The position numbers and the translations under genes are program-made. 46,508 bases of DNA from Desulfobacteria bacterium. Lineage in GTDB: Archaea; Halobacteriota; Syntropharchaeia; Alkanophagales; Methanospirareceae. The first letter of the stretch is position 1; every line of letters starts with the position of its first letter. The stretch is taken from contig DATKXZ010000009.1 in assembly GCA_035528755.1 (NCBI GenBank), forward strand, positions 1-46,508, read 5' to 3'. Shown here piece after piece: positions 20,130-22,205 of this stretch. The notes under the pieces are model-generated. The model did no database searches. It was not told the origin of the DNA and saw only the letters and a list, made by a program, of their open reading frames with translations.

Positions 20130-20594
20130 ATGAAGAAAGTTGGCATTGCGGATACCACATTCGCGCGATACGATATGGGTGCCGCGGCGATAGACGAGCT
20201 GCGGAAACATGCGTCGGTAACGATAGAGCGGTACACCGTCCCGGGCATAAAGGATCTGCCCGTGGCGTCCAAGAAGCTGATCGAGGAGAGAGGCTGCGAT
20301 ATCGTGATGGCGCTGGGGATGCCGGGGCCCAAGGACATAGATAAGCAGTGCGCGCATGAAGCTTCTACCGGAATTATCACTGCGCAGCTTCTCACGTCCA
20401 CGCACATCCTCGAGGTCTTTGTCCATGAAGACGAGGCAGAGAGCGATAAGGAACTCGCATGGCTTGCTGACCGCCGTGCGCGAGAGCATGCGCAGAACGT
20501 CATCAAACTGCTCTTCAAACCGCAGGAACTGGAGCGTGAGGCAGGCCAGGGTAAACGGGAAGGATTTGAGGATGCGGGGCCGATAGGGGTGTGA
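20130..20594 (+). CDS. ribC: Archaeal-type riboflavin synthase
   Basis: 154 aa. [17 protein letters not shown]...[10 protein letters not shown]...[11 protein letters not shown] matches the archaeal RibC (MJ1184) family. Confidence 0.88.
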
Positions 20595-20641
20595 ATAGAA
20601 AGGGTTATTTAACTAAACATACAATTAGTGTAGAGAAAGAA

Positions 20642-21649
20642 ATGATAAAGAAGCTAAAAATAAAGAACTACAAGAGCTTGAAAGACGTAGAACTTGAACT
20701 CGATAAATTCAACGTCTTAATCGGCCCGAATGCGAGCGGAAAGAGCAATTTGTTGGATTGTTTAGCGTTTGTTTCCGAAATTGCCCAAGGAAGTGTTTCT
20801 GAGAGCTTAACAAGAAGAGGCGGTTATGAACGTGTAGTATTCGGTGGCGAAAATCAGAACATAGAGTTAACCATTGATTTCACACTTGATAACGAACTAT
20901 TTACTTATCCTCTCTCGATTTCGAGAGAAGGAATAGATAAAGAGAAATTATATGTTGGAGACAAAATTAAAATAGATAAGCAAAATATCGGCTGGGCCAC
21001 TACGATTTATCAACACTCCGAGATAAGAGAGTATTTCAACTCGTTGCGATCATACAATTTCATCACTTCTGCGATGCGAAGGACCGATTTGGCCAAGAAG
21101 AATCTCATTCTGGATAAAAACGGGGGAAATTTAGCGCAAGTTCTCCTCTCATTGCATAACGAGCGCCCCAAGACCTTTGATAGAATAGAGGACATACTGA
21201 AGCAGGCGATTCCGCAGATAGACGAGCTTCTGACACCGTTAACGGAAGATGGACAGACTTACGTAGCGCTAAGAGAAAGAGGCTTTGATTCGCCGTTTAA
21301 TTACTTCCAGGTTTCCGATGGCACGCTTAAGCTGCTGGCGTATATCACCGCAATCGCTTCCGAAGAGGCGAACGTGGTTTGTTTTGAGGAACCGGAGAAC
21401 TTTATTCATCCGCGACTGTTTGAGCTTTTAGTGGAGGTTTTGAAGAAGTCGGATAAACAGATCATCCTCTCCACGCATTCTCCTTATCTCGTCGATTGGG
21501 TTGAGCCCGAGGATGTAATAATAGTAGAGAAAAAGAATAAAGAGACGGTGACGAGTAGATTAAAGGATGAAGATAGGCTTAAAAGACATTTGAAGGAAAT
21601 AGGTCTTGGTGAATTGCTTTACAGTGGAGAGACTGGTGGGACTCCGTGA
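20642..21649 (+). CDS. ABC/SMC-like ATPase (AAA_15/AAA_21 type)
   Basis: The track ORF starts at a GTG at 20591. I prefer the ATG at 20642 (MIKKLKIKNYKSLKDVELELDKFNVLIGPNASGKSN, typical N-terminus plus Walker A). Walker B/D-loop is VVCFEEPENFIHP and the H-loop is ILSTHSPYL. Confidence 0.85.
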   Translation: MIKKLKIKNYKSLKDVELELDKFNVLIGPNASGKSNLLDCLAFVSEIAQGSVSESLTRRGGYERVVFGGENQNIELTIDFTLDNELFTYPLSISREGIDKEKLYVGDKIKIDKQNIGWATTIYQHSEIREYFNSLRSYNFITSAMRRTDLAKKNLILDKNGGNLAQVLLSLHNERPKTFDRIEDILKQAIPQIDELLTPLTEDGQTYVALRERGFDSPFNYFQVSDGTLKLLAYITAIASEEANVVCFEEPENFIHPRLFELLVEVLKKSDKQIILSTHSPYLVDWVEPEDVIIVEKKNKETVTSRLKDEDRLKRHLKEIGLGELLYSGETGGTP

Positions 21650-22188
21650 TTGGATTTATAGTGGAAGGTCCTTCTGATGAGAAGGTGGTAGAGGAAATCT
21701 GCCGGAAACTTCAGGTACAGCCGAAAATAAAGCAAATGCGTAAAGCAATTAATCCCAGGAAAGCAAAGGTTTTTGCAGAATTTTTGTTAGGCCTGGATTG
21801 TGAGAAAGTGATCATCCTCCAAGATTCTCACTGTTCTGACCCTGCAAAGATAGAGGGAAATTTGAAAGGTAGGCTTATAGAAGAGAGTTTAAGAGATAAA
21901 ATGGATAGAGAGGTTAAAATTTGTGTAGTAGTTCATGCAATAGAATCGTGGCTCCTCGCTGATGAAGAGGCAATTGGCGACTATCTCAGGTCAAAAGTAA
22001 GAGGCATTCACAATCCTGAGAATGAGTGTAAGCCTGAAGAAGTTTTAGATGAAATTTTTAAGAGGCACGACGAGCAGAAATATTTAAAGGGGGGTGAAGC
22101 CCCGCGGGAAATAGCAAAAAGATTGAGCTTGGACAGGGTTATAGAAAAGTGCCCTTCTTTTATAAAATTCAAAACGTTTATAGAATAG
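21646..22188 (+). CDS. DUF4276-family protein (TOPRIM-like)
   Basis: 180 aa. The GTG start overlaps the ATPase stop (GTGA). The N-terminal MIGFIVEGPSDEKVV, the ILQDS motif and HAIESWLLADEEAI match my recollection of the DUF4276 pattern (xVEG...D.D...EaWlLaD). Confidence 0.75.
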   Translation: MIGFIVEGPSDEKVVEEICRKLQVQPKIKQMRKAINPRKAKVFAEFLLGLDCEKVIILQDSHCSDPAKIEGNLKGRLIEESLRDKMDREVKICVVVHAIESWLLADEEAIGDYLRSKVRGIHNPENECKPEEVLDEIFKRHDEQKYLKGGEAPREIAKRLSLDRVIEKCPSFIKFKTFIE

Positions 22189-22205
22189 GAGAGCGTGAAG
22201 TGAAA

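Follow-up and report, generated by a model that had tools for sequence, protein, structure and literature searches.

What are an ATPase gene and a gene of the DUF4276 family doing between two genes of riboflavin biosynthesis in an archaeon, and how long have they been there? The question is raised by contig DATKXZ010000009.1 of assembly GCA_035528755.1, of which a stretch of 46,508 nucleotides (nt; hereafter the window) was analysed and is assigned to an anaerobic methanotrophic archaeon of group ANME-1 because its RibC is 82–89% identical to RibC of ANME-1/Methanophagales. The 1.6 kb between ribC and ribH probably represent an accessory antiviral candidate of the HEC-01 type (Hma-embedded candidate 01; PADLOC-DB v2), a putative ATPase-gated TOPRIM nuclease, by analogy with better known systems, that is an old and dispensable resident of the site and unrelated to riboflavin synthesis; we put the probability of this reading at roughly 60%. 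The candidate type is already catalogued, its TOPRIM assignment has been published and it has partial experimental support. New here are an ANME-1 member of HEC-01, a presence/absence polymorphism that has long persisted at the ribC-ribH site, a set of natural knock-out alleles and a mapped variable surface of the ATPase. The barely characterised HEC-01 is now placed in an uncultured group central to marine methane oxidation; the pair reveals no new kind of system or mechanism and is a sound but fairly ordinary finding.

The cassette and its ATPase

The segment and its flanks comprise the following features (window coordinates, strand, description and evidence):

20130–20594, + strand: ribC (archaeal riboflavin synthase), upstream flank; TIGR01506 ribC_arch, 2.4e-70
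20595–20641, + strand: non-coding leader of the cassette, 47 nt; alignable in six of eight occupied loci
20642–21649, + strand: HEC-01A-type ATP-binding cassette (ABC) ATPase, 335 residues from the ATG at 20642; PADLOC, Pfam and structure model
20771–21046, + strand: hypervariable ATPase segment, residues 44–135; column identity, ratio of nonsynonymous to synonymous substitution rates (dN/dS) and structure model
21646–22188, + strand: HEC-01B-type DUF4276 protein, 180 residues, GTG start; PF14103, PADLOC HEC-01B and structure model
22189–22205, + strand: gap to ribH, 17 nt; junction comparison
22206–22637, + strand: ribH (6,7-dimethyl-8-ribityllumazine synthase), downstream flank, ATG at 22206; TIGR00114, 1.1e-43

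The initial annotation of this DNA had ribC ending at 20594 and ribH starting at 22206, and both coordinates are borne out by the open reading frames (ORFs) and by the TIGR01506 and TIGR00114 matches. It had also described two translationally coupled genes in AT-rich DNA, as is indeed found: the ATPase and DUF4276 ORFs are co-oriented and overlap by 4 nt (GTGA, 21646–21649), an overlap that is kept in homologs as ATGA, GTGA or TTGA, and their G+C content (GC) is 0.42 and 0.40, respectively. At third codon positions (GC3) the values are 0.47 and 0.38, compared with 0.53–0.67 in eleven neighbouring genes. The cassette had been taken to begin at 20591, where a GTG overlaps the ribC stop codon. 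An ORF does extend from 20591 to 21649, but this GTG is very unlikely to be the gene start: because the first 17 codons are conserved in no homolog, the Pfam and PADLOC models of the ATPase begin at residue 18 (GTG numbering) and the related loci all open the ATPase with ATG-ATA-AAR-AAR-CTA ('MIKKLK'), the gene almost certainly starts at the ATG at 20642.

All of the ATPase motifs reported earlier are present, namely Walker A GPNASGKSN (GPNASGKS at 20723–20746) and, in the C-terminal half, the Walker B/D-loop CFEEPENFIHP and the H-loop STHSP. The protein matches Pfam AAA_21 (1.9e-39) and AAA_15 (3.3e-23) above their cutoffs, as well as eleven HEC-01A models of PADLOC (best 2.6e-69; full-length match 3.2e-59). 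Searched with Foldseek, its AlphaFold model (pLDDT 91; predicted local distance difference test) retrieves the heads of Rad50, SMC, OLD (6p74) and PtuA at E values of about 1e-14, with template-modelling (TM) scores of 0.6–0.66 for Rad50, SMC and PtuA and of 0.46 for OLD 6p74 (E 1.5e-13). The same OLD structure, the Class 2 OLD nuclease of Thermus scotoductus, is the nearest solved relative by sequence (1.5e-12). Judged from the predicted structure, the protein is a Rad50/SMC/OLD-like ABC head without a coiled coil.

A role in cellular nucleic-acid maintenance has to be considered at this point, in which a Rad50-like ATPase and an RNase M5-like TOPRIM protein would act in DNA repair or RNA processing. 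Rad50 and SMC heads are the top structural matches of the ATPase and JGI names two homologs 'RNase M5', whereas the missing coiled coil and the lack of an Mre11-like partner speak against such a role. The distribution of sequence variation in the ATPase bears on the same question. Among 29 homologs of the ANME-1 clade, column identity is 0.42–0.67 in residues 44–135 (ATG numbering) versus 0.8–0.96 elsewhere, and dN/dS is 0.37–0.46 for this segment versus 0.01–0.18 for the remaining protein, so that both the variability and the raised dN/dS are confined to it. Within the segment, the model places a four-stranded antiparallel sheet (residues 74–117) inserted after the Walker A helix, and this sheet evolves faster than any other part of the system; the segment-wide dN/dS is below 1, i.e. 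short of demonstrating positive selection. An insert of this kind at this position is common to the window pair and to HEC-01, and the sheet is the counterpart of 'Insert 1', which in the proposal of Payne et al. sets specificity (10.1101/2024.01.29.577857). Residues 44–135 are, by analogy with that proposal (Payne et al., 2024), a candidate trigger-sensing surface; a hypervariable insert is typical of conflict systems and counts against the maintenance role.

A TOPRIM-like DUF4276 protein

The second gene product matches Pfam PF14103 at 1.6e-15 (58 bits versus a cutoff of 30) and contains the motifs IVEGPSDE and ESWLLAD, as had been noted. HEC-01B is its best PADLOC match (1e-12), and 15 of the 18 matches listed are HEC-01B models. 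The structure model (pLDDT 96) consists of a core of four strands alternating with helices, followed by a helical C-terminal part. In this model E7 lies directly after strand 1 (residues 2–6), D60-S-H62 after strand 3 (residues 54–60), and E100 and D106 after strand 4; E7, D60, E100 and D106 thereby occupy the positions of the acidic residues that are metal ligands in TOPRIM enzymes. These four residues are 95–100% conserved among 135 diverse representatives of a large family (3,141 clusters at 50% identity, E ≤ 1e-3), E7 being a glutamate in 128 and D60 being present in 134 of them.

In a Foldseek search of predicted viral structures (BFVD), an RloB-like protein matches the model best (E 6.2e-5, probability 1.0, TM score 0.53), and a topoisomerase ranks third (E 0.028). 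Sequence profiles give fainter signals: Pfam Toprim is matched at 0.029 by three of 35 DUF4276 members, OLD-like_TOPRIM weakly by some, and DUF3226 by 21. Alignment with the lone P2 Old sequence by hhalign returned nothing, a single sequence being too weak to serve as a positive control. In print, HEC-01B has been aligned to the metal site of the Burkholderia OLD TOPRIM (Payne et al.; 10.1101/2024.01.29.577857), and DUF4276 and RloB have been assigned as new members of the Toprim superfamily in the study of Menshen (PMC12065111). Our results agree with this assignment at the level of residues and through RloB, without establishing it independently. They likewise favour the earlier suggestion that the DUF4276 motifs look TOPRIM-like, the E7, D60-x-H62, E100 and D106 positions and the RloB-like structural match both pointing that way. 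The outcome that the initial annotation had named as speaking against it, profile searches without a nuclease or TOPRIM-like fold for the second protein, did not arise.

Relationship to known systems

By all sequence criteria that could be applied, the pair fits HEC-01. It has a HEC-01A-type ATPase and a HEC-01B-type DUF4276 protein, adjacent, co-oriented and in the same order as in the type, and the search with PADLOC that had been proposed for this locus recovers both components (2.6e-69 and 1e-12). Differences from the type are its archaeal (ANME-1) host, its position alone between riboflavin genes and outside Hma or any other defence system, and the DxH that replaces the TOPRIM DxD. The initial statement that this DUF4276 variant lacks an experimentally defined function has been overtaken in so far as the system is catalogued as HEC-01 and DUF4276 is placed in the TOPRIM superfamily in print.

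Homologs of both genes belong to the methylation-associated defence system (MADS) of Pseudomonas aeruginosa, in which Mad3 is the homologous ATPase and Mad4 a DUF4276 protein; full MADS defence in Pseudomonas needs both mad3 and mad4 (10.1101/2023.03.30.534895). The NCBIfam model MAD3 matches the window ATPase at 1.9e-43, at 149 bits against an equivalog cutoff of 420; MAD4 reaches 17 bits against 160. Near the window pair there are no genes for Mad1, 2 or 5–8, including the mandatory MAD6–8, and no methyltransferase gene. That the defence systems Hma, MADS and Menshen contain members of the family argues further against a maintenance function.

The best mechanistic analogy is offered by PARIS, which like the window pair combines an AAA_15/21-type ABC ATPase (AriA) with a separate TOPRIM effector (AriB, DUF4435) in two genes. 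In PARIS a trigger is detected by the complex of the ATPase, which then sets the nuclease free to cleave tRNA (PMC11464382). The effector of the window is, however, a DUF4276 and not a DUF4435 protein, and AriB/DUF4435 models do not match it at E ≤ 1 (PADLOC) or E ≤ 10 (Pfam); its ATPase is smaller (335 residues versus 55 kDa for AriA; PMC11464382) and matches AriA through the generic AAA_21 profile. The same ATPase-plus-TOPRIM design is found in the OLD family (P2 Old, Class 2 OLD and GajA of Gabija), where both domains are fused in one polypeptide, in contrast to the separate genes and the different TOPRIM family of the window. With two ORFs and no helicase (UvrD-like) neighbour, the pair falls outside OLD classes 1 and 2, and its resemblance to them is confined to the ATPase. 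For RloA/RloB, the DUF4276 model is closest in structure to an RloB-like protein, and the Pfam RloB profile has no sequence match to the DUF4276 protein; the ATPase matches the AbiLi model of AbiLi/AbiLii at 5.8e-38. Both of these pairs are typically tied to type I restriction-modification loci or plasmids, unlike the pair of the window. The parallel that had been drawn with split OLD-family or PARIS-like immunity modules is in this way upheld for the ATPase plus TOPRIM-like architecture, and not for membership in PARIS or among the fused OLD proteins. The core of that reading, an ABC ATPase together with a TOPRIM-like DUF4276 protein, forming an immunity-type module within rib genes, is supported by the HEC-01 matches, the structure models and the conserved residues.

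If the pair works as do PARIS, OLD/Gabija and Septu, an oligomer of the ATPase would hold or gate the nuclease, and the variable sheet would recognise a viral protein or nucleic-acid structure. Binding or hydrolysis of ATP could then release or activate the TOPRIM nuclease, which might cut DNA or an essential RNA such as tRNA and so stop the virus or the infected cell.

Observations against a defence nuclease

Several observations weigh against the reading of the pair as an antiviral module with a TOPRIM nuclease. The second TOPRIM aspartate is replaced by histidine (DxH), as in 24% of the family. When the DUF4276 model was compared with the PDB by Foldseek, no match reached E ≤ 1e-3; the best weak matches were lumazine synthases and the archaeal riboflavin synthase (E 7e-3 to 5e-2, TM scores 0.3–0.43), OLD 6p74 ranking 47th. 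PDB sequence profile searches with narrow and broad DUF4276 alignments found no solved TOPRIM relative, the ABC-transporter and designed-protein matches that they returned being spurious. No close relative of the pair was found on viral contigs or in phage records, and its locus lies outside a defence island, with other defence genes about 10 kb away at the closest. Its long vertical persistence under purifying selection, described below, would also fit a non-defence cellular role. Lastly, the one HEC-01 that its discoverers tested conferred no defence on Escherichia coli MG1655 (10.1101/2024.01.29.577857), whereas a HEC-01 from a cold seep gave E. coli B protection from one or more of T4, T5 and T7 (PMC12881386); published defence tests are mixed.

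Since position 62 is a histidine in 32 of the 135 family representatives (aspartate in 77, glutamate in 17), the DxH of the window is, from these sequences, a common family variant. The folds that were weakly matched by the DUF4276 model are those of the products of both flanking genes. A function linked to riboflavin, with the pair regulating or assisting riboflavin/lumazine synthesis, could be read from these matches, which top the PDB search. They probably reflect a generic three-layer alpha/beta topology and their agreement with the flanking genes a coincidence, as TM scores of 0.3–0.4 at E > 1e-3 suggest, and a diverged lumazine or riboflavin synthase paralog was rejected, hhalign giving homology probabilities of 5% (RibH) and 0.2% (RibC) and none of the 35 DUF4276 members showing a Pfam DMRL_synthase signal. 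Taken with the genomic contexts given below, a riboflavin-linked function is very improbable.

Occupancy and age of the ribC-ribH site

The ANME-1 relatives compared are those that keep the gene order fer4-ribC-ribH-cobD. Among them the pair lies directly upstream of ribH in 13 loci besides the window, and after ribC wherever the contig reaches that far; its constant position upstream of ribH where flanks are visible is a second point in favour of a riboflavin-linked function. Six related ANME-1 loci are empty, so that the uninterrupted ribC-ribH which the initial annotation had proposed to look for does exist, and in the more distant archaea examined (Alkanophaga, Methanocellales, Thermoplasmata and others) ribC and ribH are 20–70 nt apart without the pair. 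Adjacent ribC and ribH genes in related ANME-1 genomes and in all of these more distant archaea count against any need of riboflavin synthesis for the pair. The loci are:

Occupied: L005, L009, L020, L081/L087, L082–L085, L088–L092
Empty-site spacer: L001:3828–4010
Empty-site spacer: L003:5022–5132
Empty-site spacer: L006:1278–1416
Empty-site spacer: L010:5361–5494
Empty-site spacer: L002:6465–6546
Empty-site spacer: L008:6462–6533

The empty sites share a homologous AT-rich spacer of 97–201 nt, absent from the occupied sites and from the more distant archaea, in which the sequence …ATAAACGAAAAATACAAAAAGAATAAAAATAAATAAT… is common to all. The spacer has no Rfam match at E ≤ 1 that would identify it as a known RNA. 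The L001 spacer contains an exact 9-nt inverted repeat (CACGAGATT…AATCTCGTG), which is exact only there. Comparison of the junctions in 11 occupied and the six empty loci places the left junction approximately 12 nt after the ribC stop codon, where TAATTGCAAAGT is common to both and cassette and spacer then diverge; at the right junction only about 12–15 nt are shared before the ribH ATG. In trees of the flanks, occupied and empty genomes are interleaved, with L003/L005, L008/L090 and L006/L081 among the sister pairs, and the divergent L020 is occupied. L085 is discordant, its flanks being closest to L081 and its DUF4276 protein closest to L020 and L009. A single homologous spacer being common to the empty sites, we take the pattern to reflect two old alleles that recombination has redistributed, in preference to many separate deletions; independent clean deletions as the source of the empty sites are disfavoured by the presence of that spacer in all of them and its absence from occupied sites.

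Between lineages the cassette proteins are 61–89% identical, compared with 66–76% for CobD. The synonymous divergence (dS) between the window and L081 is 0.95 and 0.45 for the two cassette genes and 1.30, 0.67 and 0.91 for ribC, ribH and cobD; many dS values exceed 1 and are hence rough only. In every genome compared, cassette GC3 (0.28–0.49) is below that of the flanks, yet it tracks the GC of the host, in keeping with long residence and a compositional bias that has persisted; candidate causes of the bias are weak codon selection, recurrent exchange and mutational bias. A recent horizontal insertion was rejected, the synonymous divergence and amino acid identity of the cassette matching those of its neighbours and its GC3 tracking the host. 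The sequence comparisons indicate that the pair is an old, optional resident of the site that has co-diverged with its hosts. The very tight insertion that had been described is real in its spacing, with a 47-nt leader and a 17-nt gap, and is not a fresh one, its divergence being like that of the flanks; low GC and a tight operon position do not imply recent insertion. A pair carried by all relatives with native composition, which the initial annotation had set against its own reading as a sign of a riboflavin-related role, is likewise not what is found, given six empty sites and a non-native GC3.

Decay and selection

The cassette is degraded in four of the fourteen occupied loci. In L090 the ATPase N-terminus, including Walker A, has been lost and the nuclease is intact. 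L091 has an IS481-type element (an HTH_32 ORF and an rve integrase ORF; L091:82–1523, − strand) in the DUF4276 gene, of which a remnant covering residues 57–179 persists next to ribH. In L092 an internal deletion of approximately 265 nt has removed D60, H62 and E100 from DUF4276, leaving the ATPase intact, and a 39-nt GC-rich hairpin has been inserted into the same gene. In L009 there is a frameshift near ATPase residue 180 that is possibly an assembly error. Short GC-rich palindromic inserts in AT-rich DNA occur both in this degraded DUF4276 gene of L092 (~3640–3680) and in the L001 spacer (~3925–3990), examples being ACCCTTTCAGGGTTTTCGGGGACGTGGGCAGAGCCCACG and AACGGGGCTCCGCCCCGTT…CCCTGTAAGGG; such inserts could represent miniature hairpin elements that are spreading through ANME-1 genomes.

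Intact copies, including that of the window, have dN/dS values of 0.09–0.21 (0.11–0.21 for the ATPase), compared with 0.19–0.23 for CobD, and are by this measure under purifying selection. Six related genomes lack the pair and four loci contain degraded copies, which shows it to be dispensable. Dispensable yet selected is what would be expected of an accessory, conditionally useful module, and the combination argues against a role in riboflavin synthesis. For nucleic-acid maintenance the selection data cut both ways. That diverged ANME-1 lineages have kept the pair at one chromosomal site, with a synonymous divergence close to that of the flanks and low dN/dS, would suit a housekeeping function, as would the lack of neighbouring defence genes, whereas absence from six related genomes and degradation in four would not; with the hypervariable insert and the defence-associated family members, we regard this explanation as distinctly unlikely. 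Alleles that are intact, empty or degraded in four different ways, all at one site, could guide experiments, as could the mapped hypervariable surface of the ATPase.

Homologs at other sites

More distant homologs, 39–55% identical in the partner that was compared, are solitary pairs in unrelated, non-rib contexts, a distribution that points to mobility of the pair as a module and further counts against a riboflavin-linked function. The pair of L098 (2639–4233) lies 15 nt upstream of cysS, that of L099 (5001–6607) between an AP endonuclease gene and rsfS, that of L094 near a PIN/MazE pair, and those of L086 and L096 among genes with unrelated or no Pfam assignments. The L098 and L099 pairs are wedged alone and tightly spaced upstream of a housekeeping gene, without mobility genes. 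Source names of ATPase homologs include Chloroflexota and Asgard archaea. A viral or phage origin was considered and rejected, one weak N-terminal match (39%) being found in IMG/VR and none in the phage collection.

Compact, translationally coupled pairs that stand alone between housekeeping genes in unrelated genomes recall selfish addiction or toxin modules, in which the ATPase would keep a nuclease toxin in check and loss of the module would be harmful, with no net antiviral benefit. The Pfam label of AAA_21 ('putative AbiEii toxin') and the persistently atypical GC3 would be in keeping with this. Either partner has, however, been lost alone (the nuclease deleted in L092, the ATPase truncated in L090), which is hard to square with strict addiction; neither an integrase nor any other mobility gene accompanies the pair, and its inheritance has long been vertical. 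An addiction module is accordingly improbable, and the antiviral candidate of the HEC-01 type is preferred.

Leader and expression

The leader contains a TATA-box-like GTTATTTAACTAAAC at 20604–20618, approximately 25–38 nt upstream of the ATPase ATG, and most occupied loci keep the motif GTTATYTAAATAAAC at 25–38 nt before the ATG; in L009 and L020 it is degenerate and offset. The motif is compatible with an archaeal TATA box, from which a promoter function might follow. No terminator-like site was found in 19600–23000; a scan for bacterial promoters and terminators, a method unsuited to archaea, gave no more sites than in shuffled sequence. The cassette is likely to be expressed from its own promoter and/or by read-through from ribC, with ribH co-transcribed. 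Read-through from the rib genes, which had been taken to follow from the position of the cassette, is possible given the lack of a terminator-like site, but the cassette has a conserved TATA-like leader of its own as well.

In each of the copies that have lost cassette sequence (L090, L091 and L092), the DUF4276 gene still has its 3′ end, adjacent to ribH. This end might carry a ribH promoter, with TTTTATAAAA approximately 40 nt upstream of the ATG. Extra constraint on it was looked for and rejected, the conserved CPSF(I/K)KFK codons showing synonymous variation, and position is what supports the proposal. A wider conjecture, which we advance tentatively and consider rather doubtful as a whole, is that cassette and shared spacer of ~100–200 nt form an ancient two-allele polymorphism shuffled among species by recombination through the conserved rib flanks, that the cassette has replaced the native upstream region of ribH and made ribH expression dependent on it, and that the hypervariable sheet is a virus-recognition surface in an arms race with ANME-1 viruses. 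Dependence of ribH on the cassette would explain why the DUF4276 3′ end is kept in all three copies. If the conjecture were true, the locus would be a natural archaeal model for the sensing, maintenance and entrenchment of a minimal ATPase-TOPRIM module in an essential operon.

Other features of the window and related loci

The neighbours of the cassette in the window are rib, cob and thi housekeeping genes. Immediately downstream, ribH (+ strand) and cobD (− strand) are convergent and their 3′ ends overlap by 58 nt (22580–22637), as they do in L081 and L085. L007 (MAXT01000254.1) is labelled 'Desulfuromonadales bacterium' and encodes an ANME-1-type RibC (86% identity), and its gene order downstream is that of L012 and L016, both ANME-1 loci; the contig was probably misbinned, as a contaminant in the bin of the syntrophic partner. 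A second, separate island of low GC (0.34–0.42) lies at 31978–36368 of the window. It encodes a prokaryotic Argonaute of 747 residues (Pfam Piwi 2.5e-7; PADLOC PprPIWI 6.8e-71, pAgo_II), a Cas4-like PD-(D/E)XK nuclease of 189 residues whose gene overlaps the Argonaute start, and two convergent ORFs (161 and 376 residues) without Pfam or PADLOC matches.

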